Shown: positions 5,538 through 35,550 of the stretch, piece by piece | How positions within the stretch are numbered: position 1 is the stretch's first letter | Layout of the letters: each line of letters begins with the position of its first letter | Assembly (NCBI GenBank): GCA_027448785.1 | Contig: DAIDMW010000001.1 | Location: forward strand, 1,668 to 65,667 | Source of the DNA: Candidatus Colwellbacteria bacterium | GTDB lineage: Bacteria; Patescibacteriota; Minisyncoccia; UBA6257; Colwellbacteraceae | Length of the DNA: 64,000 nucleotides | Direction of reading: 5' to 3' | Program-made: the position numbers and the translations under genes | Notes under the pieces: generated by a model | Databases searched by the model: none | Told to the model about the DNA's origin: nothing | Seen by the model: only the letters and a program-made list of their open reading frames with translations

Positions 5538-6554
5538 ATGTTGAACAAGAGCGCTAAATTATCTCCGAATCTTGGGGCTGAAAAAGTAGAGGAGGTTCCC
5601 ATCCGCAACGGTTATGGCGAGGGTCTGATGATAGCCGGCGAAAAGGATGCTAATGTGGTGGTCCTTTGCGCCGACCTTACCGAATCGACTCGCTCGGAGG
5701 CGTTTTCCAAAAAATATCCCGAGCGCTTTTTCGAGGTAGGAGTGGCGGAACAAAATCTGGCGACCATCGCCGCCGGTTTGGGGATCTCCGGGAAAGTGCC
5801 GTTTATTTCCTCTTATGCCACTTTTTCGCCGGGAAGGAATTGGGAGCAGATCCGCACCACCATCTCTTACAACGATTCCAACGTGAAAATCGCCGGACAC
5901 CACGCGGGGATCTCAACCGGTCCGGACGGCGCTACCCACCAAGCGGTGGAGGATATCGCGACGATGCGGGTGATGGCCAACATGACGGTCGTAGTTCCCT
6001 GCGATGCCATAGAGGCGAAAAAAGCGACTATCGCCGCCGCGGAAATAAAAGGCCCGGTCTATCTAAGGTTCGCCCGAGAAAAGACGGCGGTTATAACGAC
6101 GGAAGACACGCCGTTCGAGGTCGGCAAGGCCGAGATCTTTTACCAGACGACGAAGCCGCAAGCCGCGATCATCGCCTGCGGCACCCTGGTTTACAACGCT
6201 TTGGTTGCGGCTAAGGAACTCGAAAAGGAAGGCATTAACGTCCTGGTCGTGAATAACCACACGATCAAGCCGATCGATGAAAAAAAGATACTCGAGGTCG
6301 CAAAGAAATGCGGCGCGATCGTCACGGTTGAAGAGCATCAGGTTGCAGGAGGCCTGGGCGGAGCGGTAGCCGAGGTTTTGGCCAAAGGTTCACCGACGCC
6401 GATGGAGTTTGTCGGCTTGCAGGGAGTCTTCGGCGAGTCAGGAAATCCAAAGGAGCTTATCGAAAAGTACGGAATGGGCGTGAAAGACATCAAGGAGGCA
6501 GTGAAGAAGGCGGTAAAGCGCAAAAGACAAAACACCGAAAATCCTAAATCCTAA
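5538..6554 (+). CDS. transketolase, C-terminal subunit
   Basis: Pyrimidine-binding/C-terminal TK domains (GISTGPDGATHQAVEDIA). ATG at 5538, 3 nt after the N-subunit stop. The last ~12 codons lie inside intergenic repeat element E1. Confidence 0.8.
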   Translation: MLNKSAKLSPNLGAEKVEEVPIRNGYGEGLMIAGEKDANVVVLCADLTESTRSEAFSKKYPERFFEVGVAEQNLATIAAGLGISGKVPFISSYATFSPGRNWEQIRTTISYNDSNVKIAGHHAGISTGPDGATHQAVEDIATMRVMANMTVVVPCDAIEAKKATIAAAEIKGPVYLRFAREKTAVITTEDTPFEVGKAEIFYQTTKPQAAIIACGTLVYNALVAAKELEKEGINVLVVNNHTIKPIDEKKILEVAKKCGAIVTVEEHQVAGGLGGAVAEVLAKGSPTPMEFVGLQGVFGESGNPKELIEKYGMGVKDIKEAVKKAVKRKRQNTENPKS

Positions 6555-6722
6555 TATCGAAATCCGAAACAAATTCGAAATTACAAATTAGAAACTCCAA
6601 ACCCGTTTGTGTTTCGTATTTGGAATTTGTAGTTTGTGATTTGTTTAGGATTTAGAATTTCGAGTTTCGGATTTTCGTTGTTTTACGCTTTTCGCTTTGC
6701 GCTCCTTTGTTTTGCGCTTCCC
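6515..6722. repeat. composite palindromic intergenic repeat element E1 (A-arm / AT-rich hairpin module / A'-arm)
   Basis: aaagcgcaaaag...aaatccgaaacaaattcgaaattacaaa...caaacccgtttgtg...tttcggattt...ttttcgctttgcgc. The same architecture occurs at 12 other sites. Confidence 0.8.
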
Positions 6723-6765
6723 ATTGTCTCTAGCTCCAGATGCGATGAGCGGCTATAATTGTTTT

Positions 6766-7791
6766 ATGTACGACGTTATTGCTATCGGCAGCACAACTAT
6801 CGATTCGTTCTGGAAGACGGATTTCGAATTGACCGACTATAAAAAAGCGCCTTCAGGCAAGGCGTTCTCCATCCCTTTTGGCGAGAAGTATGGGGTGGAG
6901 GACGTTGTTTTCACGCTTGGGGGAAACGCGGCCAACGCTAGCGTAACTTTTTCCAGACAGGGATTCAAAACGGCTCTTTTCACAAAAATAGGAAAAGATT
7001 CTCTGGGAAACGAGGTAAAACTCAAGCTGAGCAAGGAGGGGGTTTCAGAGAGTCTTATCGAGTACGCCAAGGATAAGTCGACCTCCTTTTCCGTTCTTTT
7101 GCTGCAAAAAGGAGAGCGAAGCATATTGACTCATCACGGAGCGATCAACGATTTTACCTTAAAAAACGTTAACTTAAATAAACTTAAAAGCCGTTTCTGG
7201 TATGTTTCTCTTCCCGGAGAGTCGTATCGCGAGTTTGATCGCTTATTGGAATACGCGACAAAAAATAAAATTGGCGTAGCGTTGAATCCGTCTTACAAAC
7301 AGCTAGTCGGTTCGGGGCGCGCGCAGCTGCTGAAACATCTTAAAAAAGTTAACTTTTTAGTGGTAAACGACGGCGAGGCCGCCTCGCTGGCCGGAGTCTC
7401 TTTTACGCGGCATATGGAGGTTTTTAAAAAGCTGGACAAGCTTATTCCTGGAATAGTCGCGGTGACTGCGGGTCCCGACGGAGTAATGGTTTCGGACGGG
7501 GAGTTGATATATCGGGCCGGCGTTTTTCCCGAAAAAAAGATAGCCGATCGCACCGGAGCTGGCGACGCTTTTGGTTCAGGTTTCTTGGCTGGGCTCTTGG
7601 CCAAAGGATGGGACGGCCGCAAGAAGGCCGGCGCCAAGGCTGTCGAATACGCAATACGCCTAGCCTCCGCCAACGCGACCTCGGTGGTTGAGAAAATAGG
7701 GGCTACTCCGGGAGTGTTGACCAAGCGGGAGTTTAAAACGTCGCCTCGCTGGCAAAAAATAAAAATAGAAACAAAAAAAGTAAATTACTAA
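6766..7791 (+). CDS. PfkB-family carbohydrate kinase (ribokinase-like)
   Basis: N-terminal DVIAIGSTTIDSF and C-terminal GAGDAFGSGFLAG (PfkB signature 2). Start moved to ATG 6766, immediately after a TATAAT box. Confidence 0.7.
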   Translation: MYDVIAIGSTTIDSFWKTDFELTDYKKAPSGKAFSIPFGEKYGVEDVVFTLGGNAANASVTFSRQGFKTALFTKIGKDSLGNEVKLKLSKEGVSESLIEYAKDKSTSFSVLLLQKGERSILTHHGAINDFTLKNVNLNKLKSRFWYVSLPGESYREFDRLLEYATKNKIGVALNPSYKQLVGSGRAQLLKHLKKVNFLVVNDGEAASLAGVSFTRHMEVFKKLDKLIPGIVAVTAGPDGVMVSDGELIYRAGVFPEKKIADRTGAGDAFGSGFLAGLLAKGWDGRKKAGAKAVEYAIRLASANATSVVEKIGATPGVLTKREFKTSPRWQKIKIETKKVNY

Positions 7792-7792
7792 C

Positions 7793-9025
7793 ATGGAACA
7801 CTGCGAACCTTTAGCAAAAGTATTGAACGTCAATCCCGACTTGATTTCCGCTCTTGATCGGGAAATGGAGAAAAGAACGGGAAAGAAGGGGATATTGGAC
7901 AAGGTTTATAATGATAATTGCGCCGAAATCGAAAAAACGTTAAAACTGCTGGATTCAAACGAGCGATCAGCCAATCATGTGCGAAGCGTTCTGCGTTCGG
8001 AGATTCTGACCAACGAAAAAGAGTTGTTAAAATACCTGGAAACGATCGAAGGGAAGGACGAGTTTGAAAAAGCGGTCAACCTTTCAAAAAAAGTGGCTCG
8101 AGTAGATAAAGGTTTCTTTTTGAAGAAAGATCGCGCCGAGGGAATTTTGCGGAAACGCCCGCCGGAACATCTATTGGAGTATTTAGGATTAAAAACCGTC
8201 GATGAAGTTTTGGCCAAGCATGACGTGGCCGAGGTTTTCAGCGCCCTGCGCTTCATCGAGAGCGAGGAGTGGATGCATGAAACGTTTGAGGTTGCGTACA
8301 GCGATTTTACTGCCGATGATTTTGAAGAACGCGAAATCGAGGTCCGCGTTCTGGGTCCGGCCTGGCACGAAATCGCCTTGAAGTTCGTAGCCAAGAAACA
8401 CCACAACGTCAGTCACCTCAAGGAGTTCGGGGTTATTTTCCTTAATCCGATCAAAGAAAACGTGCCTGGGAAATTCTTGCGCGACTTCTCTTTGTTCATG
8501 CACTATTACCACGAGATTGACTTCTACTCCAAGCTGTTCCGCCGTTACGCCAAGGAGGCGGACTTCGCCGAAAGGCTGAAGTCACTGCTGCGCGGAGACG
8601 TTCCCGAGATATACAAGGCCGAGGACGGAGAATGGCTTATCGTCCAGCGCTACCTTTCGAAAATAAATCCGCAGGACCCGCGCCTTTTTCTGCCGCGGGT
8701 CAATCCGGAATCGATGCACTGGGCTCGCGGAGAGCGGGACATCACGCAGTATTCCGAGCCAACCAAGATGTTCAATCTGCATCTCTGGCACAATTTGGAC
8801 TGGGTCGGGGGAGTTTTCGACGGAGGGAAGGACGAAGTAGTTAGCTTCGACTTGGAGGACAACGCTATGTCGCTGGTTTCCTTCATGGAAGGGAAGGACG
8901 AAGGATTCAATTACCACCAGCGCGAAGCGATGTGGACCAAGATTTTCGAAGAGTTCGTCGGTGGAGACAAAAAGATGGAGGAGATCCTCATCGAGAACTT
9001 CGACAAGGGAATCGTCAAATTCTAA
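7793..9025 (+). CDS. hypothetical protein (410 aa), no recognisable family
   Basis: Long clean ORF translationally coupled to the pfkB stop (TAACATG). Sits in a sugar-phosphate gene neighbourhood. Confidence 0.5.
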   Translation: MEHCEPLAKVLNVNPDLISALDREMEKRTGKKGILDKVYNDNCAEIEKTLKLLDSNERSANHVRSVLRSEILTNEKELLKYLETIEGKDEFEKAVNLSKKVARVDKGFFLKKDRAEGILRKRPPEHLLEYLGLKTVDEVLAKHDVAEVFSALRFIESEEWMHETFEVAYSDFTADDFEEREIEVRVLGPAWHEIALKFVAKKHHNVSHLKEFGVIFLNPIKENVPGKFLRDFSLFMHYYHEIDFYSKLFRRYAKEADFAERLKSLLRGDVPEIYKAEDGEWLIVQRYLSKINPQDPRLFLPRVNPESMHWARGERDITQYSEPTKMFNLHLWHNLDWVGGVFDGGKDEVVSFDLEDNAMSLVSFMEGKDEGFNYHQREAMWTKIFEEFVGGDKKMEEILIENFDKGIVKF

Positions 9026-9100
9026 AAGCGCAAAATTAAAAGCTAAAAGCGAAAAAGAATAATAACGTAGTTATTTTGCGTTTTGCACTTTTCGCTTTTA
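9026..9100. repeat. short palindromic intergenic repeat element E2 (A-arm/A'-arm only)
   Basis: aaagcgcaaaattaaaagctaaaagcgaaaaag...cgttttgcacttttcgcttttaaaat forms a hairpin. Confidence 0.7.
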
Positions 9101-9111
9101 AAATAAATGTA

Positions 9112-10695: not shown

Positions 10696-12121
10696 GCCGA
10701 AAATACTTTTAGACATCAAAAAGAGCGTTCAGGACGATGTCTTCGCTTCCAGAACCAAAAGAATAAATCTTAGTTTCGCGGAGAAGCGAGGGCGCGCCGT
10801 TTTCCGCTATGTATCCATACCGGCGATATTTTTTATCGCCGTTTTCCTTTTGGGCTCGGTCCTCGCCCCGATCAACGAAGGCTCCCACGCCCAGACTTTG
10901 AGCTCAACGGCACAGCAGCAGCAGGATTTGGAAAACCAGCTTCAAGCTCTAGAAAACCAAATTACCCAGTACCAAAACCAGATCGCCGTTTACCAGAAGC
11001 AGGGTAGTACTTTGCAGGGGGCGATCAACGAGCTGAATGCTAAGATCGCGAAAATAAACCTGCAGATCCGGGCGGTCAACCTTTCGATCCAGCAGTTGGA
11101 CGGGCAGATCGTTGTCACCAATTCCAAGATCGGCACGCTGCAGCAGAACGTCAGCACGACCCAGGATTTCCTGAGCGCCACCTTGGAAAAGATCTATGAA
11201 ACCGACAGCCAGGGATTTTTAGTTGTTTTATTGCAAAACCCGCGCCTCTCCGATTTTTTCAACAACGTTAACAACCTGATGGCTCTGCAAGGCGGATTGA
11301 AGACCTCGGTCGATACGCTCACAGGCCTGATTACCGAGTTGGTCGGGCAAAAAAACCAGCTGGCGATCGAGCGTTCAGACGCGGTCACCTTGCGCGACTA
11401 CCAGAACTCGCAGAAGCAGAGCGTCCTGGCGACCAAGCAACAGAAGGCCACGCTTTTAGCCGACACCAAGGGCCAGGAGTCGGCCTATCAGTCCCTGCTA
11501 ACTAAGACGCAAAAGACAGCCGCGCAGATCCGCGCCCAGATCTTCCAGCTCTTGGGCGGCGGCCAGCTAACCTTCGGCACCGCCTACCAATACGCGAAGT
11601 TTGCGGGCCAAGCTACCGGCGTCGATCCAGCTTTGATCTTGGCCATCCTGGACCGCGAATCGGCTCTGGGCCAGAATGTAGGACAGTGCAGCTACCAATC
11701 AGCAATGTCGCCGAAGCAGGCTCCGGTCTTTCTGCAGATCGTGCAGAGTTTGAATTTAGGGAACGAGCTGCAGAACGGGATCCTCAAAGTTTCGTGCCCG
11801 AACAGCGACGGAATATACGGAGGCGCGATGGGGCCGGCGCAGTTCCTGCCTATCACTTGGGAGGATTACGCGAGAGAGATAACCCAGATAACCGGCGACA
11901 ATCCGCCTAACCCGTGGAGCAACTCTGACGCGTTCGTCGCTACCGCCCTTTACCTGCGCGACGCAGGCGCAACGACCAATCCGCGCGAAGCGGCTGCCAG
12001 ATATTACTGCGGATCGAACTGGAACCGGTTTGTCTGCTTGGACGTTTACGGCGCCAACGTCATCGACCAGGCGCAGCAGTTCACGCAGGATATCGCGATA
12101 CTTAACGGGAACGGAAGCTAG
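10685..12121 (+). CDS. membrane-anchored coiled-coil protein with C-terminal lytic transglycosylase (SLT)-like domain
   Basis: N-terminal TM segment, a long Q/L-rich heptad region, then GVDPALILAILDRESALGQN (E-S catalytic motif of SLT). Start ambiguous between GTG 10658 and ATG 10685. Confidence 0.5.
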   Translation: MRPKPKILLDIKKSVQDDVFASRTKRINLSFAEKRGRAVFRYVSIPAIFFIAVFLLGSVLAPINEGSHAQTLSSTAQQQQDLENQLQALENQITQYQNQIAVYQKQGSTLQGAINELNAKIAKINLQIRAVNLSIQQLDGQIVVTNSKIGTLQQNVSTTQDFLSATLEKIYETDSQGFLVVLLQNPRLSDFFNNVNNLMALQGGLKTSVDTLTGLITELVGQKNQLAIERSDAVTLRDYQNSQKQSVLATKQQKATLLADTKGQESAYQSLLTKTQKTAAQIRAQIFQLLGGGQLTFGTAYQYAKFAGQATGVDPALILAILDRESALGQNVGQCSYQSAMSPKQAPVFLQIVQSLNLGNELQNGILKVSCPNSDGIYGGAMGPAQFLPITWEDYAREITQITGDNPPNPWSNSDAFVATALYLRDAGATTNPREAAARYYCGSNWNRFVCLDVYGANVIDQAQQFTQDIAILNGNGS

Positions 12122-12344
12122 AAGCGCAAAAGGCAAAGCGCAAAAGAACGAAAATCCGAAATCCGAAATACTAAATCCGAAACAAATTCGAAATTACAAA
12201 CTTCAAATTACAAACCTGCTTGTGTTTATGATTTCGGATTTGTTATTTGTGATTTGTTTAGTATTTCGATATTAGGATTTTGAGCTTTCGTTATTTTGCA
12301 TTTTGCGCTTTTCGCTTCGCGTTTCTTTGTTTTGCGCTTTTCTT
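12121..12344. repeat. composite palindromic intergenic repeat element E3 (best exemplar)
   Basis: aagcgcaaaaggcaaagcgcaaaag + long AT-rich imperfect hairpin centred on cctgcttgtg + ttttgcattttgcgcttttcgcttcgc. Confidence 0.85.
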
Positions 12345-12372
12345 TTTGAGCCATATATAATGAAGCCAAGCT

Positions 12373-13629
12373 ATGCCTGGATTATTTGGTGACGCAGAAA
12401 GCGGCGAAGTAAAAAAATCCTCTCCTTTAGCTGACCGCATTCGGCCAGAGACGCTGGATGAGTTTCTGGGTCAGGACGAGATTATCGGCCCGGGGACGGT
12501 TTTACGGGGTGCAATCGAGCGCGACGAGATCCCGTCAATGATCCTCTGGGGACCTCCGGGCAGCGGAAAAACCACTTTGGCCAGAATTATCGCCAAGATG
12601 ACCAAGGCTCACTTCGTGCAATTCAGCGCGGTTACCGGAAGCGTAGGCGAGGTGCGCGAGATTATTAAGGTTGCGCGGGAAAGGAAGAAGGTCTACGGGC
12701 AGAAGACGATCCTTTTCGTGGACGAGATACACCGCTTCAACAAAGCGCAGCAGGACGCGTTTTTGCCGCATGTCGAGGACGGCACGATAGTGCTTATCGG
12801 CGCGACGACCGAGAATCCGTCCTTCGAGGTGATTTCCGCGCTCCTCTCGCGCGCCCGCGTTTTCGTGTTGAAGTCTCTCTCCGCATCCGACATCACTAGG
12901 ATAATCAGGCGGGCGCTGGCCGATAAGGAGCGGGGACTGGGAAACGAACCGATAGAGATCGGCGAGGAGACGGTAGATTTTTTGGCGAAGATGGCGGACG
13001 GCGACGCACGCGCCGCCTTAAACGCTCTGGAGCTGGCGGTGCACTCAGCCGGAAAGGAGGGAGAGACGATAGCGATCGACCGCGATCTCATTAAGCAGTC
13101 GTTGCAGAAGACGCATCTTATGTACGACAAGGGCGGGGAGGAACATTACAACATCATCTCGGCGTTGCATAAGTCGATGCGCGGCAGCGACGCTAACGCC
13201 GCTTTGTATTGGCTGGGCCGGATGCTCGAGGCCGGCGAGGATCCGCTCTATGTGGCGAGAAGACTGATTCGCTTCGCTTCGGAAGACGTTGGCCTGGCTG
13301 ATCCGCAAGCGCTGGTGCAGGCTGTCGCCGCCTACCAGGCGTGCCACTTTAACGGGATGCCGGAGTGCAATGTCAACCTAGCTCAAGCGGTGGCGTATCT
13401 CGCCAAAGCCCCGAAGAGCACCAAGCTAATGTGGGCCTACGAGAAGGTGAAGAAGGATATCGAAGAGCTTCCCAATGAAGGTGTGCCGCTGCATCTGCGA
13501 AACGCGCCGACGCGTCTGATGAAAGAGCTGGGATACGGCAAAGGATATAAATACAACAAAGAGGAGGCGCAGGAATCCGGACAGACTTATCTTCCGGAGA
13601 AGTTGAAGGACAGAAAATACTGGGACTGA
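12373..13629 (+). CDS. rarA: replication-associated recombination protein A (AAA+ ATPase)
   Basis: Walker A GPPGSGKTTLARIIA, Walker B ILFVDEIHRFNK. The C-terminal MgsA/RarA domains terminate with TGA. Confidence 0.85.
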   Translation: MPGLFGDAESGEVKKSSPLADRIRPETLDEFLGQDEIIGPGTVLRGAIERDEIPSMILWGPPGSGKTTLARIIAKMTKAHFVQFSAVTGSVGEVREIIKVARERKKVYGQKTILFVDEIHRFNKAQQDAFLPHVEDGTIVLIGATTENPSFEVISALLSRARVFVLKSLSASDITRIIRRALADKERGLGNEPIEIGEETVDFLAKMADGDARAALNALELAVHSAGKEGETIAIDRDLIKQSLQKTHLMYDKGGEEHYNIISALHKSMRGSDANAALYWLGRMLEAGEDPLYVARRLIRFASEDVGLADPQALVQAVAAYQACHFNGMPECNVNLAQAVAYLAKAPKSTKLMWAYEKVKKDIEELPNEGVPLHLRNAPTRLMKELGYGKGYKYNKEEAQESGQTYLPEKLKDRKYWD

Positions 13630-13631
13630 AT

Positions 13632-13790
13632 AGCGCAAAACCAAAAGCTAAAAGCTAAAAACAGCGGCCACTAAAAAAGCGCAAAACTAAAAGCGCAAAG
13701 CTTAAAAGATCCGACGACTAACGACCTGCTGTTATTTTACGCTTTTCTCTTTACACTCGCCTTGTAGTTGTTTTTCGCTTTGCGCTTCTT
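13632..13790. repeat. intergenic repeat element E4 (contains gatccgacgactaacgacc core)
   Basis: gcgcaaaactaaaagcgcaaagc...gatccgacgactaacgacc...ttttcgctttgcgc. Confidence 0.8.
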
Positions 13791-13821
13791 TTTGCTCTCT
13801 TGTATATTGGAATTGTAAATT

Positions 13822-14562
13822 ATGGAGGATCGGAAAGACATAACACAGATAAAGCCTAATAAAGGGAAGGAGATTAACATCGACGTTAGCGGAGCGACTT
13901 ATGCCCGCTACCCCATTAAAACGCCGCTAATTAACCCGGGGGACAGCTTGGAAAAACTGATCGACGAATTACTCAGACCCTATCTCGAGCCTGGGGACGT
14001 GATCTTCATCAGCGAGAAGGTCGTAGCCGTCACGCAGAACAGGATTATTCCGATAAAGGAGGTAAAGCCGTCGTGGCTAGCCAGAATTCTGGCGCGCAAC
14101 GTGAAGAATAATTGGGGCACCAAAGACTTCCGCGGATTCGGGCACGGGACGCCGATGGCGATGGAGCTCTTTATCCGCGAGGCCGGCGTGCCGCGGGTGA
14201 TATTTGCGGCCGGCATCTCGGCTGTTACCAGGCCTTTTGGCATCAAGGGCGCTTTCTACGCTCTCAGCGGCAAAAACGCCAAATCGGTCGACTGTCCGAT
14301 GTCCTTCATCCTTTACCCCTATACTCAATACGCCAAACTAGCGCCTTTGAACCCGAACCGGGTGGCGGAAGAGCTGAAGAAGAAGTTCGGACACGAGGTG
14401 GTGGTGGTGGATGCCAACTACCGCGGGGTTTATTCCTTGGGGAAATCGACAAAGAAATTGACGGAGAGGTTCATTCACGACGTCTTCCGCGACAATCCGC
14501 TTGGGCAATCGGACGAGCAGACGCCACTTTGCATAGTTAGAAAAGCGCAAAATTCAAAGTAA
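13822..14562 (+). CDS. CofE-like (F420-0:gamma-glutamyl ligase family) protein
   Basis: ~246 aa with GDVIFISEKVVAVTQNRII resembling the CofE/F420-ligase fold. Assignment is from memory of the family pattern. Confidence 0.4.
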   Translation: MEDRKDITQIKPNKGKEINIDVSGATYARYPIKTPLINPGDSLEKLIDELLRPYLEPGDVIFISEKVVAVTQNRIIPIKEVKPSWLARILARNVKNNWGTKDFRGFGHGTPMAMELFIREAGVPRVIFAAGISAVTRPFGIKGAFYALSGKNAKSVDCPMSFILYPYTQYAKLAPLNPNRVAEELKKKFGHEVVVVDANYRGVYSLGKSTKKLTERFIHDVFRDNPLGQSDEQTPLCIVRKAQNSK

Positions 14563-14692
14563 CGAAATTCCAAATCCTAAATCAGAAATTCGAAACAAAT
14601 TTAAAAGCGCAAAGAGAAAAGCGTAAAATAACGGTAGGTCGTTAGTCGTCGGATCTTTTAAGCTTTGCGCTTTTAGTTTTGCGCTTTAAACT
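14541..14692. repeat. intergenic repeat element E5, inverted copy of E4 (core ggtcgttagtcgtcggatc)
   Basis: Reverse complement of the E4 core and arms. Overlaps the last codons of the CofE-like gene and of prfA. Confidence 0.8.
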
Positions 14693-15395
14693 CCTTAACT
14701 ATCGGATCCATGTCCCCGCCCATAATTTTTTCGATATGGTGCCACTTCTTGTTGATGCGATGATCGGTGATCCGGTCTTGGGGGAAGTTGTAAGTGCGGA
14801 TTTTCTCCGACCTCTCGGCTGAGCCGATCTGCTCACGGCGCAAGCCGGTCATCTTACTCTCCTCCATCTCTTTTTGCGCCTCGTATAGTTTGGAGCGCAG
14901 GATGGATAGTGCCTGCTCTTTGTTGGCGGACTGGGAGCGCTCGGTTTGGGAGGAGACGACCACGCCGGTCGGCTTATGGATGATTCTGACCGCGGTTTCA
15001 ACCTTGTTGACGTTCTGTCCGCCGGGGCCAGAGGAGCGGAAGAATTCGATCTGCAGGTCGTTGGGGTTAACGTCGAACTCTCGCGGCTCGACGACCGGCA
15101 TTACCGCGACCGACGCAGTCGAGGTGTGCACTCGGCCGGCCTTTTCGGTTTCGGGTATGCGCTGGACGCGATGAACTCCGGCTTCTTGTTTCAAGTCGGA
15201 ATAGGCGCCATCGCCTTCGATTCTCCCGACGAGGGTCTTATAGCCGTTGAGACTAGTCTGGTTCATATCTAAAACCACAAACTTCCAACCGCGCCGCGCC
15301 GCGTACCTTTCATACATCCTGGCCAGGTCGCCGGCAAAAATAGCAGCCTCGTCTCCGCCGGCTCCGGCTCTTATTTCTAATATGGCTTTCTCCAT
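14673..15395 (-). CDS. prfA: peptide chain release factor 1-like, lacking N-terminal domain 1
   Basis: GGQ motif (RSSGPGGQNVNKV) and a PET tripeptide at the RF1 PxT position (RIPETEKAGRVHTS). Aligns to E. coli RF1 from about residue 110 onward. No upstream ORF or space for domain 1. Confidence 0.8.
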   Translation of the reverse strand: MEKAILEIRAGAGGDEAAIFAGDLARMYERYAARRGWKFVVLDMNQTSLNGYKTLVGRIEGDGAYSDLKQEAGVHRVQRIPETEKAGRVHTSTASVAVMPVVEPREFDVNPNDLQIEFFRSSGPGGQNVNKVETAVRIIHKPTGVVVSSQTERSQSANKEQALSILRSKLYEAQKEMEESKMTGLRREQIGSAERSEKIRTYNFPQDRITDHRINKKWHHIEKIMGGDMDPIVKEFKAQN

Positions 15396-15507
15396 TGTCT
15401 AAATAAATTAAAGCGCAAAGCTAAAAGCGCAAAACTTACGACATTGACCAACTATAGAGGTTGAGTCAACATTGTGTGTTTTAAGTTTTTAGCTTTTACT
15501 TTTGCGC
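15396..15507. repeat. palindromic intergenic repeat element E6
   Basis: aaagcgcaaagctaaaagcgcaaaac...gttgagtcaac...gtttttagcttttacttttgcgc. Confidence 0.75.
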
Positions 15508-15822
15508 TTACTTTTTGTTTGCTCCTTTTTGGGGCTCGTGCAAGCTGCCGCGCATCTTTTTATCCATGCGGTTTGCTTCCACCTTGGTGCGGCGGGCCTT
15601 CGCCTGCTCCGAGCGGGCCTCAGCCTCGCGGACGCGCGACTTAAACTTCTCGATCCGTCCGGCGGTGTCCATCAAGCGTTCCTTTCCGGTGTAGAAGGGG
15701 TGGCAGTGGTCGCAAATTTCGACCGTCATCCTTTCCTGGGTGGAGCCGGCCTTGAAGGTGTGACCGCAGGCGCAACTGACCGTCGCCTCCGGGTAGTATT
15801 TGGGGTGGATATCCTTTTTCAT
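15508..15822 (-). CDS. rpmE: 50S ribosomal protein L31 (Zn-ribbon type) with basic C-terminal extension
   Basis: [10 protein letters not shown] start, CxCG...CxxCHP zinc motif. 104 aa versus ~70 typical. Confidence 0.85.
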
Positions 15823-15854: not shown

Positions 15855-15883
15855 TTGACAAGTACGCCGCTTATCCTTACTAT
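15855..15883 (+). promoter_or_regulatory. sigma70-like promoter upstream of 16S (TTGACA-17 nt-TACTAT)
   Basis: ttgaca agtacgccgcttatcct tactat read directly, ~75 nt upstream of the 16S 5' end. Confidence 0.5.
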
Positions 15884-15959
15884 ATTTTAGGTCATAAGAC
15901 ATGACTGCTCTTTTGTAAGTTAATAGTAAATGTAGAAACTTTTTAGTTGTTCCAGTCTA

Positions 15960-17536
15960 TTTTTGAGGATTTGATCCTGGTCCAGGATGAACGCTGGCGG
16001 CGTGGATAAGGCATGCAAGTCGAGCGAACCAAATCTTGATGAGATTCGCGGAGTAGCAATACGAAGCGGAAGGAATCTTGGCGAGGTTAGCGGCGAACGA
16101 GTTAGTAATACCTTGGTACGTACCCCGAAGACGGGCATAGTTCGCCGAAAGGCGAAGTAATTCCCGATAGTCCCCGAGAGCAATCAACGGGTAAAGGCGC
16201 AAGCCGCTTTGGGATCGGCCTAGGTCCGATCAGCTAGTTGGTGAGGTAACGGCCCACCAAGGCTATGACCGGTAGGGAGGGTGAGAGCCTGATTCCCAAC
16301 GAGGGCACTGAGACACGGGCCCTACTCCTACGGGAGGCAGCAGTCGAGAATATTCGACAATGGGCGAAAGCCTGATCGAGCGACGCCGCGTGCAGGAAGA
16401 AGTCCTTCGGGATGTAAACTGCTTTTCTACGGGAGAAAGTTCCGGCGCAAGTCGGAATTGATAGTACCGTAGGAATAAGAGGTGGCTAACTTCGTGCCAG
16501 CAGCAGCGGTAATACGAAGGCCTCGAGCGTTATCCGGATTTACTGGGCGTAAAGGGTGCGTAGGGGGCTGGATGCGTCTCTCGTAAAATCTCACCGCTTA
16601 ACGGTGATATCGCGAGGGATACGATCCGGCTAGAAGGTGCGAGAGGTTTGCGGAACGCATGGTGTAGGGGTAATATCCGTTGATATCATGCGGAACACCG
16701 AAGGCGAAGGCAGCAAACTGGCGCATTCTTGACCCTGAGGCACGAAAGCGTGGGGAGCAAAAAGGATTAGATACCCTTGTAGTCCACGCCCTAAACGATG
16801 TTGATTAGCCGTTTTGAGTATCGACCCTCGGAGCGGCGTAGCTAACGCGTTAAATCAACCGCCTGGGAAGTACGAGCGCAAGCTTAAAACTCAAAGGAAT
16901 AGACGGGGACTCGCACAAGCGGAGGAGCATGAGGTTTAATTCGATGGTAAACGAGAAACCTTACCAGGGCTTGAAATGCTAGCGGAAATCCACCAGAAAT
17001 GGAGGATGTCTCTCAAGGACCGCTAGTCCAGGTGCTGCACGGTTGTCGTCAGCTCGTGTCATGAGATGTTCCCTTAAGTGGGGTAACGAGCGCAACCCTT
17101 GTCCCGTGTTACAAGTGTCACGGGAGACCGCCCCCACATTTGTTTTGGAGCCGAGTAATCGGTTCGAAGATAAATGTGGGGGAGGAAGGAGAGGATGACG
17201 TCAAATCAGCGTGGCCTTCTGATGCCCTGGGCGACACTCATGCTGCAATGGCCGGTACAAAGGGTTGCCAAGCCGCAAGGTGGAGCTAATCCCAAAAAGC
17301 CGGCCCCAGTTCGGATTGTGGGCTGCAACCCGCCCGCATGAAGTTGGATTCGCTAGTAATCGTGGATCAGCAGGCCACGGTGAATACGTTCTCGAGTCTT
17401 GTACTCACCGCCCGTCAAGTCAAGGGAGCCGGGAAAGCCTGAAGTGCGCTTCGCGCGTATCAGGGCTGGCTCGGTGACATGGGCTAAGTCGTAACAAGGC
17501 ACGTGTAGCGGAAGCTGTGCGTGGAACAATTAAACT
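15960..17536 (+). rRNA. rrs: 16S ribosomal RNA (divergent; no linked 23S/5S within 0.5 kb)
   Basis: 5' TTTGATCCTGG...GATGAACGCTGGCGGCGTG, 515 region GTGCCAGCAGCAGCGGTAATAC, GGATTAGATACCCTTGTAGTCC, GCATGGTTGTCGTCAGCTCGTG-like, and 3' AAGTCGTAACAAGG. The 3' boundary is uncertain because no GGATCACCTCCTT is present. Confidence 0.9.
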
Positions 17537-17680
17537 TTTAAGAATCGACCATTCCGTAGTTCGCCTTAGGCGAGCGAAGGATGGAAATGGTGTTGATCGA
17601 GGAGCCAATTGTCTCGATCGCCCAATCGTGCTTCGGCACGGTCGGGCTCTAGACTGGGACAACTAAAAGGCCTCTACAGA

Positions 17681-17932
17681 AGCGCAAAGCGAAAAACGCA
17701 AAACTCAAAATAATTGACGGTTAACAGACTGCCGTTGTTTTTCGCTTTTAGCTTTTAGTTTTGCGCTAAATTCGAAGCTCTAAATCCTAAATTCTAAATA
17801 AATCACAAATCCTAAATTCCAAACACAAACGGGTTTGTGATTTGATGTTTGGTATTTCGAATTTGTTTCAGATTTAGTATTTCAGATTTAGAATTTTCGT
17901 TATTTTTCGCTTTTAGCTTTTAGTTTTTAATT
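17681..17932. repeat. composite palindromic intergenic repeat element E7 (downstream of 16S)
   Basis: agaagcgcaaagcgaaaaacgcaaaac...ttttcgcttttagcttttagttttgcgc + AT-rich hairpin centred on caaacgggtttgtg + ttttcgcttttagcttttag. Confidence 0.8.
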
Positions 17933-18007
17933 TTATTGACCGTCCTGCATGTTGGGTATATTCTTTAGACATACCCGCAAGGGAGCGAATATCCATATTT
18001 ATAGAAA

Positions 18008-19684: not shown

Positions 19685-19710
19685 AAAACTCCCCTAAGCG
19701 GGGAGTTTTT
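19685..19710 (+). terminator. rho-independent terminator after pilin genes
   Basis: aaaactcccc-taagc-ggggagttttt: 10-bp GC-containing stem followed by a T tract. Confidence 0.7.
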
Positions 19711-19724
19711 GATTAGAAGAGAAA

Positions 19725-19830
19725 AAAGCGTAAAGCGAAAAGCTTAAAGCGCAAAACTAAAAGCGCAAAATTTAAAAGAACCGGCGACTAACGGCCACTC
19801 GATGTTTTTCACTTTTAGCTTTGAGCTTCT
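19725..19830. repeat. intergenic repeat element E8
   Basis: aaaagcgtaaagcgaaaagcttaaagcgcaaaactaaaagcgcaaaat...ccggcgactaacggcc...ttttcacttttagctttgagc. Its right arm supplies the annotated ATG of the next ORF. Confidence 0.75.
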
Positions 19831-20476
19831 TTTTACTTCGCCGACCGCATTATTTGGTATATTATTGGTTATGATGTTGATCGATGCATTTGTTTTGACG
19901 CGTTTCCACTTTCTAGCGCTTCTGACCCTGATTTTTTTAGGAGTTTTTACCGCCCAGGTTCTTTATCGTTGCGGAAAAATAAAAAATACTAAAATCTTCC
20001 GCGCTTTTTTCTGGTTTTCACTAATCTTCCCCTTCCTTTACTACATTTACCTGACTATCGCCCAGTACTTTATGTGGAAAACCGAGGGTGGCTTAGGCAA
20101 GTTTTTACTGCCGCCGTATGTCGGTGCAAGTTATGTCATCGGCTACCACTTCATACGCTTTTACCTTTACTACCTCATCTCTGCGGCGGTCGGAACCTTG
20201 TTCCTGCTAGCCGCGGTCTATCTGAACAAAAAGTTCGGCCGGCGCTTTTTCGAGGATGAGGAGCCGTATCTCGGGGCCGGCGCCATATCTTTGGTCGGCT
20301 ACCCAGGATTTTTCTTCTACCTTGTTGCACTGTTTTCCAGTCAGTTGGTTTTAACCGCCGGGCGATATCTGCTTACCAGAAAAAGCGAGCGCGTTCCGTT
20401 TTATTACTTATGGTTGCCGGCCGGCGTATTTGTTATACTACTCATATATCATTACCGTTTGTTTTATTTTAGCTGA
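19802..20476 (+). CDS. polytopic membrane protein, possible short A24 prepilin peptidase (PilD-like)
   Basis: Multi-TM protein between the pilins and pilB. LIDAFV and GAGAISLVGY are loosely reminiscent of PilD Asp-containing motifs. The true start may be the MML.. Met near 19872, since the first 10 codons are repeat-derived. Confidence 0.3.
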   Translation: MFFTFSFELLFTSPTALFGILLVMMLIDAFVLTRFHFLALLTLIFLGVFTAQVLYRCGKIKNTKIFRAFFWFSLIFPFLYYIYLTIAQYFMWKTEGGLGKFLLPPYVGASYVIGYHFIRFYLYYLISAAVGTLFLLAAVYLNKKFGRRFFEDEEPYLGAGAISLVGYPGFFFYLVALFSSQLVLTAGRYLLTRKSERVPFYYLWLPAGVFVILLIYHYRLFYFS

Positions 20477-22185: not shown

Positions 22186-22302
22186 AGTGCAAAACTTAAA
22201 GCGCAAAGTGTAAGGCGAAAGGCGCAAAATAACGGCGGGTCGCTAGTCGTCGGATCTTTTAAAGTTTGCGCCTTTAGTTTTGCGCTTTTATCTTTTCGCT
22301 TT
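22186..22302. repeat. intergenic repeat element E9
   Basis: agtgcaaaacttaaagcgcaaag...gtcgctagtcgtcggatc...gtttgcgcctttagttttgcgcttttatcttttcgc. Confidence 0.75.
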
Positions 22303-22373
22303 AAAATAAAAAGCAGAAGCCACTTAGGTTTTTCCAAAAACGTTATAAAAGGAAGGAAATTTTATTCAAACCA

Positions 22374-23588: not shown

Positions 23589-24077
23589 ATGATAAGCAAT
23601 AAGGGTTTTACTCTAATCGAGCTGCTGATAGTCATGTCGATCATGGCGATAATCGCCGTCGTCACCCTGCCTAACTTCTTCAGCTCCCGTTACCGCTACT
23701 CTTTAAATAAGGACGCCGAGGGCTTGGCCTACGGCATCCGCGCCGCCATTTCCAATTCACAGACGCAGCTGAACGCCAGCCGCTGGGGCATTCGCCTGAG
23801 CAACAACACCTCGACCGGCGGCTACTATTACCAGCTGTGGTACGGCACCTCGACCTACGCTTACGGCACACCGTCGACTCTGACGCCGCTAGACCAAGGT
23901 ATTAGTTTTTCCGGTATTGCGCTTGGCTCGGCTGTGGATATCTGCTTCGCTCAAATCAGCGGCCTGCCGGTGGACTGTTCGACCGGCCTCGGCACCTCGA
24001 CGGCGATTACTTTAAGCGCCATCGGCGGCCAGCAAACAACGGTGACGCTGAATGCCAACGGGACGGTCAACTACTAA
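23589..24077 (+). CDS. type IV pilin-like protein (MISNKG|FTLIELLIVMSIMAII)
   Basis: Class III signal peptide and N-terminal helix. Ser/Thr/Gly-rich globular part. Confidence 0.7.
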   Translation: MISNKGFTLIELLIVMSIMAIIAVVTLPNFFSSRYRYSLNKDAEGLAYGIRAAISNSQTQLNASRWGIRLSNNTSTGGYYYQLWYGTSTYAYGTPSTLTPLDQGISFSGIALGSAVDICFAQISGLPVDCSTGLGTSTAITLSAIGGQQTTVTLNANGTVNY

Positions 24078-24370
24078 AAGCGCAAAGCTAAAAGCTAAAA
24101 GCAGCGGCAAAGCGAGCGCAAAGCGAAAAACGCAAAGCGCAAAACACCGACCAGTAATTAACTAAATTCGAAGCACTAAATCCTAAACAAATTCCAAATT
24201 ACAAACTTTAAATTCCAAACCCGTTTGTGTTTGTGATTTCGGATTTGTTATTTCTGATTTGTTTCGGATTTAGGATTTCGTGCTTGGAATTTGAAAAAAA
24301 GCGCAAAGGCAAAAGAACGATTCCAACGAACTGCGTTATTGTTTTTCGCTTTTAGCTTTTAGTTTTGCAC
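24078..24370. repeat. composite palindromic intergenic repeat element E10
   Basis: aaaagcgcaaagctaaaagctaaaagc...gcgcaaagcgaaaaacgcaaagcgcaaaac + AT-rich hairpin (caaacccgtttgtg centre) + ttttcgcttttagcttttagttttgcac. Confidence 0.8.
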
Positions 24371-24409
24371 TTATTTATCAACTGTTCTCCGTTTCATCTT
24401 TATTTTATA

Positions 24410-25087
24410 ATGAAGAGAATGATCAAAGATCCGCGGAGCGGACAATCGTTGGCCGAGATACTCGTGGCCACTACCGTCGGCGCCATCATCATCGGAGCTG
24501 TTGTTTCCGCTATCGTCATCACCATGCGCAGCGACGCCCAGAACCGCCTGGCGAGCACCGCCACTTCCTTGGCTAATGGACTTCTGGATAACGTCCAGTC
24601 TTTGGCCGACGGCGACTGGTCGGCAATCTATAACTTGCCGACCAAAGGACCGACTTCGCAGTACTATCTGGTTACGACCGGAACGCCGCCGACACTTTCG
24701 GTTTCGACCGGGACCGACGCGACTGTGAAAAACGGAGTAACTTTCACCCGCTACTTCTCGGTGCAGGATGTTAACCGCACCAACTGCGGCACCGGCACCA
24801 TCACAACCAGTTCGCCGACTTCCTGTTCCGGCGGCGTCGGCATTCTGCAGGATCCTTCAACCGAGCTGGTGACAGCTTACGTTTCGTGGACCAATGTCGG
24901 CGGAGCCAGCAGTACCGTCTCGGTACCGACCTACCTGGCTCATTCCAAGGATCGAGTTACGCAGTATAATGACTGGAGCGGCTCGGCTAACGTTCAGGGT
25001 CCCGTAACTTCTCCGCAGCCGGATTACGCCTCTTCGAGCAATATTTCCACCTCGACCAGCGGCGCAATCGAATTGCTTAAATACTAA
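24410..25087 (+). CDS. minor pilin/pseudopilin-like protein (prepilin-type N-terminus GQSLAEILVATTVGAIIIGAVV)
   Basis: Variant class III signal (RSGQSLAEILVA) and hydrophobic helix. Start moved from the repeat-derived 24365 to ATG 24410. Confidence 0.5.
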   Translation: MKRMIKDPRSGQSLAEILVATTVGAIIIGAVVSAIVITMRSDAQNRLASTATSLANGLLDNVQSLADGDWSAIYNLPTKGPTSQYYLVTTGTPPTLSVSTGTDATVKNGVTFTRYFSVQDVNRTNCGTGTITTSSPTSCSGGVGILQDPSTELVTAYVSWTNVGGASSTVSVPTYLAHSKDRVTQYNDWSGSANVQGPVTSPQPDYASSSNISTSTSGAIELLKY

Positions 25088-28509: not shown

Positions 28510-28548
28510 TTAGTTTTAGCTTAGAATCAAGGACCAGCGAGGTCAAAT

Positions 28549-28790
28549 AAAGCGCAAAACGAAAAGCGCAAAAGGCAAAAGAACCTACATCCGACGACTA
28601 GTCGTTATTTTTCGCTTTTAGTTTTTCGCTTTGCGCTTCCTAGACCCGTCCGTGTTTCGTATTTGGAATTTGTAAATTGGAGTTTGTTTCGGATTTAGGA
28701 TTTAGTGCTTCGAATTTGCCTAGCCACTAATCTCTAACCACTAGTCTCTATTTTTCGCTTTGCGCTTTAAGTTTTGCGCTTTTAGCTTTG
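28549..28790. repeat. composite intergenic repeat element E11
   Basis: aaagcgcaaaacgaaaagcgcaaaaggcaaaag...catccgacgactagtcgtta...ttttcgcttttagtttttcgctttgcgc + half AT-rich module + ttttcgctttgcgctttaagttttgcgcttttagc. Confidence 0.8.
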
Positions 28791-28911
28791 CCCCTTGCCC
28801 CTTCAGATGGATTATATTAAAATCCGGTGAGTAATAGCTGTTCAGCTGCCGATTCTAGTCAAAATGAAAAATAAACGGGGGAATCCGTCTTCCGGAAACT
28901 GTTTAAATTAA

Positions 28912-31161: not shown

Positions 31162-31163
31162 AT

Positions 31164-31382: not shown

Positions 31383-31399
31383 GCTTCCTAAACAAGTCG

Positions 31400-31786: not shown

Positions 31787-31789
31787 AGT

Positions 31790-33016: not shown

Positions 33017-33017
33017 T

Positions 33018-34250: not shown

Positions 34251-34279
34251 TTCCGTCCCGTTCTAAATAAAAAAAACTA

Positions 34280-34308
34280 TTGACGTCACCGAACGACGGT
34301 GTATTATT
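34280..34308 (+). promoter_or_regulatory. putative promoter TTGACG-17-TATTAT with embedded CACCG..CGGTG palindrome
   Basis: ttgacg tcaccgaacgacggtgt tattat, ~50 nt upstream of speD. Confidence 0.35.
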
Positions 34309-34358
34309 AACACGTTTTTTAGTCAATAAATCGAATAGTTACCGAAACAGTTAATGAA

Positions 34359-34754
34359 ATGAGCAGTCAGCGCCGCGGAGCGGCTTTGCCGAAAAGGAAG
34401 AAGGAGAAGATCGACGAGCACCGGCCATTAGGACGGCACATCATTGCGGATTTTTTCGGCTCGGAGAACCTGGACGATCAAGCGTACATCAAGAAGACGC
34501 TTTTTGAAGCGGCTAAAGCGGCCAAAGCCACGGTTCTGGGATCGAAATTCCATCGCTTTTCTCCACAGGGCGTAACCGGCTATTTGCTGCTCGCGGAATC
34601 GCACATCTCCATCCACACTTGGCCGGAACACGGATACGCCGCTGTTGACGTTTTCACCTGCGGCGATATGGATCCACACCCCGCCTTCCTTTTTATGAAG
34701 AAGAAATTTAAAAGCTCTTCAGTGAAAACAGTGGAGATTATGAGGGGATTTTAA
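34359..34754 (+). CDS. speD: S-adenosylmethionine decarboxylase proenzyme (small class I form)
   Basis: GRHIIADFFG and the ESHISIHTWPE self-processing motif. Confidence 0.75.
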   Translation: MSSQRRGAALPKRKKEKIDEHRPLGRHIIADFFGSENLDDQAYIKKTLFEAAKAAKATVLGSKFHRFSPQGVTGYLLLAESHISIHTWPEHGYAAVDVFTCGDMDPHPAFLFMKKKFKSSSVKTVEIMRGF

Positions 34755-34787
34755 AAAGCGCAAAGCTAAAAGCGAAAAAAATAAGAA
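34755..34787. repeat. half intergenic repeat element E12 (A-arm only)
   Basis: aaaagcgcaaagctaaaagcgaaaaaaat directly after the speD stop. Confidence 0.6.
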
Positions 34788-34870
34788 CAACCGGAAGATA
34801 AAGCGCTGGAAGCATAACGATAAAAACAGAGGTCGCGCCAGTTTCCTACTGAGCAGCGCCTTTTTTTGTT

Positions 34871-35452
34871 CTAGACGCTTTGTCCGAACTTTGCGAAGTG
34901 AATGGTTTCGTAGCGCGCTCCGGACGGAGAAAGTACCGACTCCATCAGTGAAATTCCGGCGACAAGGCTGCCGACCTCGATTTTTCCGTTCTGAATCGGT
35001 TCCTTAACCAGACCGACGGCCGATTCGGGATTGAATCGGGCTAGGGTTATGTGCGTTAATAGTTCTCGCTTTTCCACCTCTTTCGTCCCCGTTCCGGATT
35101 CGCTCAGCTTCGCCTGCAGCACGGAGCGCAGCTCTTCCGCTGGAGCGGAGTGCGGCCCAGTGGCCCAGACGAGGCGGGGATATCTGGCGTCAGGGCCGTA
35201 AGAGGCCTGTTCAAGGGTAACGAAGAAAGGCTTAACCTCTGCTGCCGCTTCGTCCAAGACTCTTTGGATCCTTCCTATCTCTTCCGCCTCAGCGTACCAA
35301 GGCGGAATGAGTGTCAGATGTAAACCTTCCCGATTTACCAGCCGCAGGGGAAGGTGGGTATTTTTGGCAAACTCTTCGATCCAGCGCGACAGGCTGTCGG
35401 CAGCCTCGGCGTCCAAAGGAAGGGCTATAAAGATTCTTCTCTGATCCTGCAT
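34871..35452 (-). CDS. thpR: RNA 2',3'-cyclic phosphodiesterase (2H family, LigT/ThpR)
   Basis: Two H-x-T-x motifs (LHLTLIPP and LTHITLARF), ~190 aa. Confidence 0.7.
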   Translation of the reverse strand: MQDQRRIFIALPLDAEAADSLSRWIEEFAKNTHLPLRLVNREGLHLTLIPPWYAEAEEIGRIQRVLDEAAAEVKPFFVTLEQASYGPDARYPRLVWATGPHSAPAEELRSVLQAKLSESGTGTKEVEKRELLTHITLARFNPESAVGLVKEPIQNGKIEVGSLVAGISLMESVLSPSGARYETIHFAKFGQSV

Positions 35453-35464
35453 GGTAGTAAAAAA

Positions 35465-35550
35465 TTAAAAGCGAAAGATAGCGACAAGGCGGGTGCAAAA
35501 CTAAAAGCTAAAAGCGAAAAACAATAACGCGGCTCTTTTGCATTTTGTGC
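35465..35550. repeat. intergenic repeat element E13
   Basis: aaaagcgaaagatagcg...gcaaaactaaaagctaaaagcgaaaaac...ttttgcattttgtgc. Confidence 0.65.

Follow-up and report, generated by a model that had tools for sequence, protein, structure and literature searches.

Modular, imperfectly palindromic intergenic repeats built from phased heptamers in a Candidatus Colwellbacteria genome

The genomes of the candidate phyla radiation (CPR, or Patescibacteria) are considered streamlined, with few repeats and little mobile DNA. What, then, are the related sequences that recur from gap to gap in a member of this group? The window studied here, a 64,000-nucleotide (nt) stretch of a Candidatus Colwellbacteria bacterium (contig DAIDMW010000001.1), carries 13 intergenic copies of such sequence within 29 kb, and searches of the literature on intergenic repeats in CPR, Patescibacteria and Parcubacteria found no description of elements of this kind. 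An earlier note, made from the letters of the window, had likened them to the structured repeats of the REP (repetitive extragenic palindromic), BIME (bacterial interspersed mosaic element) and MITE (miniature inverted-repeat transposable element) families, a likeness borne out by their modular, hairpin-forming and intergenic character. Here we propose, with moderate confidence, that they belong to a family of intergenic repeats which expanded in this lineage and which, non-coding, modular and imperfectly palindromic, is built from heptamers and works like REPIN (REP doublets forming hairpins), BIME, MITE and BOX elements.

Phased heptamers in thirteen intergenic gaps

Related repeat sequence is present in all 13 gaps in which an element had been placed (at 6515, 9026, 12121, 13632, 14541, 15396, 17681, 19725, 22186, 24078, 28549, 34755 and 35465), and the elements, referred to here as E1 to E13, take up 7.4% of positions 6514–35560. 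Their organising unit is not the roughly 9-nt one first described but a phased heptamer: AAA followed by N4 in the left arm (for example, AAAGCGC, AAAACTA, AAAAGCT, AAATCCG, AAATTCG and AAATTAC) and the complementary N4 followed by TTT in the right arm. Runs of at least three AAA units phased at 7-nt spacing occur 32 times in the window against 0.4 in local shuffles, and runs of at least three phased TTT units 30 times against 0.9. These arrays fall within the elements, except for about six; stray short runs of 3–4 units lie outside at 2011 (upstream of the span), 7755 and 19977, and three phased runs lie past 36 kb. Base identity within the elements is 0.52 at a lag of 7 nt, 0.47 at 14 and 0.35 at 21, whereas lag identity is about 0.25 in other intergenic and in coding DNA, so that plain low complexity does not describe them. 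All 25 occurrences of the decamer AAAGCGCAAA fall in the elements, which total 2.1 kb; the other 61.9 kb have none, in keeping with the claim that the family is limited to intergenic DNA. Tandem Repeats Finder called periods of 7 and 14, with units that are degenerate rather than perfect. Because five independent metagenome assemblies of near-identical strains (99.6–99.9% identity) carry the same sequences, the elements are not assembly artefacts. The feature is real and statistically overwhelming.

The phasing bears on two readings of the heptamers. One is that they are DNA-uptake signal sequences for the nearby type IV pilus and competence machinery, arranged in inverted pairs as in Neisseria. 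Genes for type IV pili and type II secretion do lie among the elements, and the DNA-uptake sequences of Neisseria often occur as inverted repeats in terminators. Within the Patescibacteria, the Saccharibacteria are naturally competent (PMC10633639), which together with the habit of the Neisseria signals speaks for such a role. Single heptamers outside the elements, however, occur at their Markov expectation (AAAGCGC, 22 observed against 22.7 expected; AAAGCGCAAA, none), the units vary widely between modules and genomes, and half of the window is without them; we consider this reading most improbable. The other holds that the arrays are guide-RNA arrays of TIGR-Tas or CRISPR-like type. TIGR arrays are known from Patescibacteria and from phages; CRISPR finders overlook them, their repeats are short and their unit, of about 36 nt, comprises two alternating 8–12-nt repeats and 9-nt spacers and lies beside a Nop-domain Tas gene (PMC12045711). 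The present arrays have a period of 7 nt and lack variable spacers, the copies are scattered singly over the gaps, and the window encodes no protein of the Nop-domain, Cas or Tas kind. Such an anatomy refutes this reading, to which we attach next to no probability.

The elements have no coding capacity and are mosaics in which A, B and core modules are combined differently among copies. The heptameric A units are found throughout. The B module is a 130–150-nt AT-rich imperfect hairpin, an inverted doublet of a conserved core (TAAATCCKAAACAAATYC; complement, GRATTTGTTTMGGATTTA), and its centre, CAAACCCGTTTGTG, lies at 6598 and 24216 and, reverse-complemented, at 17824. Of the three modules named in the earlier note, A and B stand; the third, C (GATCCGACGACTA at 13708 and, on the minus strand, at 14643 and 22244), is not a general module but the apical loop of E4, E5 and E9. 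Similarly, the description of full copies as A–B–A′ hairpins applies to four elements of 209–298 nt, E1, E3, E7 and E10 (4–5 of the 13 copies), and not to the remainder.

Among these full composites, E1 (6514–6722; B module, 6533–6680) separates the gene for the C-terminal half of transketolase from pfkB and contains the final 12 codons and the stop of the former. E3 (12119–12348; B module, 12146–12293) lies between a lytic transglycosylase-like gene and rarA and has single-nucleotide polymorphisms (SNPs) between strains at 12176 and 12305. E7 (17677–17936), which follows the 16S rRNA gene and precedes a response-regulator gene, consists of an A–core–A′ hairpin, a B module in the opposite orientation (17765–17902) and a second A′ array, with about 30 nt directly duplicated on both sides of the B module. 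The largest composite, E10 (24075–24372), follows a pilin gene and combines A arrays, a B module (24159–24294) and a second A–core–A′ hairpin.

Two elements carry half a B module. E5 (14540–14692) has only the A-rich arm (14556–14613) next to an A–core–A′ hairpin and lies between convergent genes, both of which terminate inside it (a cofE-like gene ending in RKAQNSK-stop and prfA ending in KAQN-stop). E11 (28547–28805) is placed between the divergent genes pth (minus strand) and lepB (plus strand) and has an A–core–A′ hairpin, the T-rich half of B alone (28639–28720) and further arrays of period 7 or 14, (CTAACCACTAATCT)n and (TTGCCCC)n, on either side of an A′ array.

The A–core–A′ type of shorter hairpin, with a small ATAACG…CGTTAT-type stem–loop at its apex, accounts for E2, E4, E6, E8, E9 and E13. 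E2 (9023–9104) is a short copy between a gene for a 410-amino-acid (410-aa) conserved hypothetical protein and fba. E4 (13630–13800) has a GATCCGACGACTAACGACC loop, and 82 nt of it (13676–13757) are 95% complementary to an 82-nt segment of E5 (14606–14687), making the two segments inverted repeats that flank the cofE-like gene (13822–14562). E6 (15406–15512) lies between rpmE and a short prfA, both on the minus strand. E8 (19716–19835), with eight phased A units, a core and a degenerate T arm, is directly 3′ of a canonical terminator (19690–19716). E9 (22182–22306), with the C-type loop, is between gspE and gspF, and the degenerate E13 (35460–35560) is between two minus-strand genes. Finally, E12 (34753–34785), after a speH-like gene, is a lone array of four A units without a partner arm, and is kept in the congener SKS1.bin112 (about 90% nucleotide identity in genes). 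Whatever the gene setting (co-directional; convergent, E5 and E12; or divergent, E11), elements start at the upstream stop codon or a few codons before it, and stop short of the −10-like boxes found a few nucleotides before the next ATG, for example TATAAT at 6754–6759 before the ATG at 6766.

Insertion, copying and change among relatives

Homologues of the 410-aa protein are named as Jorgensen-, Pace-, Lipton- and Colwellbacteria, which, with the unlinked 16S rRNA gene, the type IV pilus genes and the split transketolase of the window, indicates a Paceibacteria-type member of the Patescibacteria. In the relatives compared here, identity to the window in this protein is 96% for locus L208, 82–88% for L199/L200/L201, L206 and L207, and 67% for L202. 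The gap orthologous to E1 is 11–53 nt long and repeat-free in L199/L200/L201, L206, L207 and L202. The gap orthologous to E2 measures 5–6 nt in L199, L206 and L202 and 34 nt in L207, again repeat-free, and 191 nt in L208. In the distant relatives L202 and L204, the sites of E7, E8 and E9 are occupied by ordinary terminators together with extended −10 promoters. L208 has one copy more: its pfkB and 410-aa genes, 1 nt apart in the window, are separated by an element of 116 nt. Over about 96 nt this copy matches another, 1.1 kb upstream, at about 98% identity, and the genes of L208 are only 75–82% identical to those of the window at the nucleotide level. At the E1 site, the window has a B module and L208 a short core, with identical right flanks. 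Together, these comparisons show elements that were copied into gaps between the upstream stop and the next promoter or start, gaps that measure 5–50 nt in relatives. The empty and filled sites and the recent copy in L208 support the suggestion that the family is non-autonomous mobile DNA.

These junctions also bear on an alternative explanation, in which the elements are over-grown bidirectional intrinsic terminators or 3′-end stabilisers whose halves, an A tract with GCGC and GCGC with a T tract, were reiterated by slippage, each step lengthening the stem by 7 base pairs. Ordinary terminators of the window share this design (AAAAAAGAGCGC-TCAG-GCGCTCTTTTTTT), elements begin no more than a few codons from a stop codon, the long stems have stable folds and E5 lies between convergent genes. 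By contrast, E11 lies between divergent genes, E8 is directly 3′ of a canonical terminator, and E2 and the extra L208 copy were inserted at co-directional junctions of 1–6 nt that are tightly packed in relatives. Moreover, the stems end in GCGC and a T run of only 3–4 nt, a consensus terminator scan gave no excess over shuffles (counts from both the promoter and the terminator scan equalled those in shuffles and are uninformative), and the B modules and half elements are left unexplained. We therefore regard a primary role as terminators or stabilisers as unlikely.

The repeat-element reading that we favour is further informed by differences between close relatives. One strain (L004) has a single extra AAAGCGC unit (+7 nt) at 14603 in E5. 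Relative to SKS1.bin112, E13 differs by a 7-nt indel, and indels of 14, 15, 15 and 50 nt fall in A arrays, with alignments that are ambiguous by about 1 nt. Arrays are thus shown to gain and lose whole 7-nt units, a pattern consistent with replication slippage. Other differences concern modules. E9 and its SKS1.bin112 ortholog are 74% identical, with 50-nt and 15-nt indels and a different core, and E9 has evolved at a near-neutral rate. The core of E13 (35477–35550) is replaced in SKS1.bin112 (L049, about 2750–2880) by a GGG-phased heptamer hairpin, whose units (TAGGGAC TGGGGGC TAGGGGT and so on, paired with AAACCCC AATCCCC AGTACCT) keep the 7-nt phasing with a wholly different sequence; we take the CCCCAAT and CCCCAGT units to match the cyanobacterial STRR1 heptamer. 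In a further strain (L003), four clustered SNPs in E4 bring it to 100% identity with the E5 copy, which suggests ongoing gene conversion and a possible substrate for inversion. The directly duplicated 30 nt or so flanking the B module of E7 fit the same pattern. Modules and apical cores have thus been shown to be swapped between copies, consistent with homologous recombination or gene conversion through shared A arrays, and these swaps support the earlier proposal that the elements act as recombination substrates.

Folding, and a core shared with phages

The earlier note had asked for the elements to be folded and searched in Rfam. Long copies fold well below dinucleotide shuffles (z of about −3.6 to −8.5): the minimum free energy of E1 RNA is −64.3 against −36.8 in shuffles (z = −8.5), and z is −6.6 for E3, −3.9/−4.8 for E5, −7.6 for E6, −5.2/−8.6 for E7, −4.4 for E9, −8.5 for E10 and −3.6 for E11. 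For E2, E4, E8, E12 and E13, folding is not significantly stronger than in shuffles (z of −1.8, −1.8, −0.1 and −0.6 for E2, E8, E12 and E13, respectively). Rfam returned no family match to the elements: in the window, only the 16S rRNA and one tRNA passed gathering scores, and at E ≤ 1 there were only spurious matches to miRNA hairpins.

Could these long hairpins, or at least E10 and the B modules, be structured small-RNA genes? Their strongly negative z-scores would fit, as would the conservation of E10, which is 97–100% identical to its SKS1.bin112 counterpart except for 14- and 15-nt indels in A arrays, whereas third codon positions on both flanks are 77–79% identical between the same two species, placing E10 above the synonymous-site level. 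The sense strand, however, folds no better than the antisense strand, both being equal and with no G–U advantage. Among B copies of the window and SKS1.bin112, identity is 75–85% in direct orientation and 65–77% against each other's reverse complement; self-complementarity within a copy, at 65–76%, is no higher than that between different copies. Aligned B copies have invariant AAA and TTT columns and variable N4, and RNAalifold found compensatory changes in 2 of 37 pairs, a positive (penalising) covariation term and a structure out of register. From the covariation and the cross-copy complementarity, no compensatory maintenance of RNA structure is evident, and the palindrome looks ancestral to the family. 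Given in addition the lack of any Rfam family even at E ≤ 1 and a multi-copy state with unit-length indels, we consider small-RNA genes very unlikely.

We next consider how far such sequences extend. An exact-pattern scan of 185,579 species genomes with AAAGCGCAAARCNAAAAGCG gave, among the matches listed, multi-hit genomes of Patescibacteria (POMEDNA-B22, SKS1.bin112, several metagenome-assembled genomes (MAGs) labelled Saccharibacteria and a Paceibacterota MAG) and Omnitrophota MAGs, in all of which the order runs from stop codon through A arm, loop and T arm to start codon. Single hits elsewhere among those matches, including cyanobacteria, were chance matches in coding regions and not elements. 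The unit sequences differ widely between modules and genomes. Around RarA homologues from metagenomes (80 loci, 57–67% identity, no synteny, which serve as a negative control only), about 1 Mb contained almost no phased arrays. A B-module profile search revealed weaker B-like hairpins in other Patescibacteria that share the irregular core TAAATCCKAAACAAATYC. The same core occurs in 32 IMG/VR stretches, about 25 of which have extended similarity and are intergenic; the A pattern is essentially missing from viral contigs. From these matches, the repeats are not confined to the source genome: A-type arrays appear in several Patescibacteria and Omnitrophota MAGs, and the B core in Patescibacteria and phage contigs.

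In the phage contigs, the T-rich arm lies 0–40 nt upstream of the Shine–Dalgarno (SD) sequence or ATG of genes for the major head (phrog_212), portal (phrog_64), head (phrog_240) and tail-assembly (phrog_1082) proteins. It is usually part of a full hairpin directly after the preceding stop, and is solitary in some contigs (L226, L220 and L211). The 38-nt phage T arm is 97–100% identical where the capsid genes are 61–64% identical at the nucleotide level; its first 18 nt are identical by search design, and within the capsid group the identity extends over the following 20 nt. A window element and a phage hairpin had no BLAST match among 50,697 GenBank phage records, a result to which the low-complexity filter may contribute. 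The capsid protein of the phage contigs is at most 43% identical to that of any cultured phage, and the host cannot be read from it.

The main rival to the repeat-element reading draws on this phage context. On this view, what the phased A3N4/T3N4 arrays provide, above all through the B core TAAATCCKAAACAAATYC and its complement, would be a cis-regulatory signal of specific sequence by which expression of the downstream gene is boosted or gated. A conserved protein that binds RNA or DNA (ribosomal protein S1, a Csp-type protein or an RNA polymerase subunit, for instance) might use it as a platform and read it with a 7-nt period, and the partner arm of the palindrome would be either a regulatory anti-sequence or the same signal for the opposite strand. 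The position of the phage T arm just before the start signals of structural genes, at times with no partner arm, favours this, as do its conservation relative to the capsid genes, the purifying selection on E10 and the pattern of invariant AAA/TTT and variable N4 among B copies. S1, Csp or CsrA has, moreover, been proposed to bind the TAACTGA heptamers that Beggiatoaceae carry ahead of start codons (PMC4679880). Against this, the B modules of the window lie 80–120 nt from the next start codon and occur in both orientations relative to genes (inverted in E7) and between convergent genes (E5), E9 evolves at a near-neutral rate, relatives lack the elements at the same junctions, no binding protein was identified, and the identity of the first 18 nt of the phage T arm follows from the search itself. 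We judge such a signal possible but rather improbable. In its widest form, arrays with TAAATCCKAAACAAATYC/GRATTTGTTTMGGATTTA would be a widespread, undescribed cis-acting expression signal, 7-nt-periodic, read by a host factor and common to Patescibacteria (perhaps also Omnitrophota) and their phages; this we consider doubtful. If it were true, phages would place the signal directly before their most highly expressed structural genes, and the dispersed palindromes would be paired copies of a signal rather than selfish DNA. E10 conservation and the phage context do show constraint on at least some copies or on the B core.

Two further observations concern the phage contigs. Between the T arm and the start of the head gene, a mini-hairpin pairs the SD sequence with an upstream CUCC (L212, 2605–2625; L233; L220), with examples such as CTCC-AAA-GGAGG, CCTCC-GAA-GGAGG and CTCC-GAA-GGAG; it may be an SD-sequestering switch. 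The B-like arm of L211, L231 and L241 is accompanied by another dispersed repeat (..GTCATTGCGAGGAGC..GACGAAGCAATC..), of a sequence often met in cyanobacterial and Chloroflexi-type genomes, which hints that some core-carrying phages infect non-CPR hosts.

The family among known repeats, its surroundings and its significance

Insertion, recent copying, slippage of units, module exchange, the absence of coding capacity and the absence of covariation fit a selfish, non-autonomous, palindromic repeat family. Most copies would then be tolerated selfish DNA that is co-transcribed with its neighbours to give long A–U-rich hairpins. Some may have been co-opted as transcript-boundary or expression elements, whether as a 3′-end or processing hairpin or as an upstream T-rich element; candidates for this are E10, with its conservation, and the core of the B module, which phages share. 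Copies might be mobilised by an enzyme that acts in trans or by recombinational copying alone.

Several results weigh against this proposal. Comparison of filled and empty junctions (the E2 site and the pfkB/410-aa site of L208) yielded only ambiguous 2–4-nt A/T-rich matches (TAAA and GT), such that neither a target-site duplication, which the earlier note had suggested looking for, nor sharp termini were demonstrated. No transposase or RAYT-like gene was found among the open reading frames (ORFs) of the 64-kb window by NCBIfam and Pfam scans. The elements are patchy, being missing from the 36–64-kb part of the window despite comparable intergenic gaps; those gaps hold ordinary bidirectional terminators of A run, GC stem and T run (for example, AAAAAAGAGCGCTCAGGCGCTCTTTTTTT at about 44930). 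To these are added the equal folding of both strands, the B complementarity that is no higher within than between copies and the RNAalifold result given above. Lastly, the same heptamer flavour across phyla and the conservation of the B core in phages would fit a sequence-specific cellular function no less than the horizontal spread of a selfish element.

Comparison with known systems places the family between established types. Like the REP/BIME elements and REPINs of enterobacteria and Pseudomonas, the copies are extragenic, dense, non-coding and imperfectly palindromic mosaics of a few module types, situated between a stop codon and the next gene, with inverted doublets of a conserved core that form a long hairpin and decayed singletons alongside. 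Unlike them, they have no sequence similarity to REPs, their arms consist of phased 7-nt sub-repeats of variable copy number, their hairpins are AT-rich and 2–3 times longer, and no RAYT (Y1 transposase) was seen in the available 64 kb. Heptameric intergenic simple sequence repeats are known but poorly understood, and include cyanobacterial STRR (short tandemly repeated repetitive) sequences of Calothrix and Nostoc, GGGAATC in Xanthomonas, GGGGA(T/C)T in Nostoc and TAACTGA in Beggiatoaceae; polymerase slippage and binding by S1, Csp or CsrA have been proposed for them (PMC4692102, PMC4679880). With these the elements share a tandem 7-nt unit, a strongly intergenic location that is often near ORF starts or ends, occasional inverted stem–loop pairs, length variation between close relatives and a patchy spread across phyla (PMC4692102, PMC4679880). 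The present units, however, are degenerate (only A3/T3 is fixed and N4 varies), and the arrays are short (3–8 units) and almost always paired into long palindromes with non-repeat cores, as dispersed composites that are 75–85% identical over 130–150 nt.

The Correia elements of Neisseria, ERIC, RUP and the BOX elements of S. pneumoniae are likewise small, non-autonomous intergenic insertions with inverted repeats, co-transcribed hairpins and presence/absence polymorphism; BOX is also modular (A–B–C), with a variable number of one module, and some copies of these families affect the expression of neighbours, as copies of the present family might. They differ in that no duplication of TA or another target was demonstrated here, the arms are inverted repeats throughout with no separate terminal inverted repeats, no transposase that would point to a related insertion sequence is encoded in the window or at the loci inspected, and none of those families shows heptamer phasing. 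Finally, phage processing hairpins such as the RNase III sites of T7 are long, imperfect intergenic hairpins in late operons, immediately 5′ of highly expressed structural genes, a layout that the B-like phage hairpins match; they differ in that no sign of cleavage was seen here, the sequences are unrelated and bacterial chromosomes contain dispersed copies of the core as well.

Other features of the window deserve mention. It also encodes type IV pilus genes and a split transketolase. The prfA gene for release factor 1 (RF1; 14673–15395, minus strand) has only 240 aa and matches positions 105–340 of the RF1 model, the N-terminal domain being missing. Relatives have the same form (243 aa; L202, 12169–12900, and L204, 15482–16213), so it is a lineage trait rather than damage by the adjacent repeat. 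The infB ORF (2049–3596) contains an in-frame 24-nt tandem repeat, four copies of CCTTCGACAAGCTCAGGGCAAGCT at 2229–2324 within the IF-2 GTPase domain, which adds PSTSSGQA four times after YEIEH; the identical 24-mer occurs once in the Jorgensenbacteria relative L202 (17291–17314), in intergenic DNA downstream of the 16S gene. The 16S rRNA gene of the window (15959–17536) is unlinked, with no 23S, 5S or tRNA gene downstream in the window and E7 following 140 nt later; a promoter-like TTGACA-17-TACTAT lies upstream at 15855–15883. TATAAT-like −10 boxes stand about 6–14 nt before start codons, several of which lack an SD sequence (6754–6766, 12353–12373 and 24405–24420, and in gaps of L202 and L204), which suggests leaderless or near-leaderless mRNAs in the lineage. 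A 187-nt direct repeat of 79% identity (54243–54429 and 57241–57427) lies inside ORFs 53636–55801 and 56613–58352; neither these nor the neighbouring ORFs 52819–53643 and 55878–56597 have a Pfam match, and all are probably paralogous lineage-specific proteins.

For a group held to be streamlined, it is of note that repeats fill 7% of a 29-kb housekeeping region, are inserted at former operon junctions of 5 nt and supply the last codons of essential genes. As a repeat family, they would offer a tractable record of very recent genome change in uncultured organisms, in the form of slippage, gene conversion and copy-and-paste events. They would link the heptameric intergenic repeats, whose over-representation is known but unexplained, with REPIN- and MITE-like palindromes. 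The hairpins are in addition a practical hazard for the assembly of CPR MAGs and for gene calling, as ORFs run into them and false starts arise within them. The core shared with phages, which stands before capsid and portal genes, could reveal an exchange of small elements between host and phage or a new expression signal.

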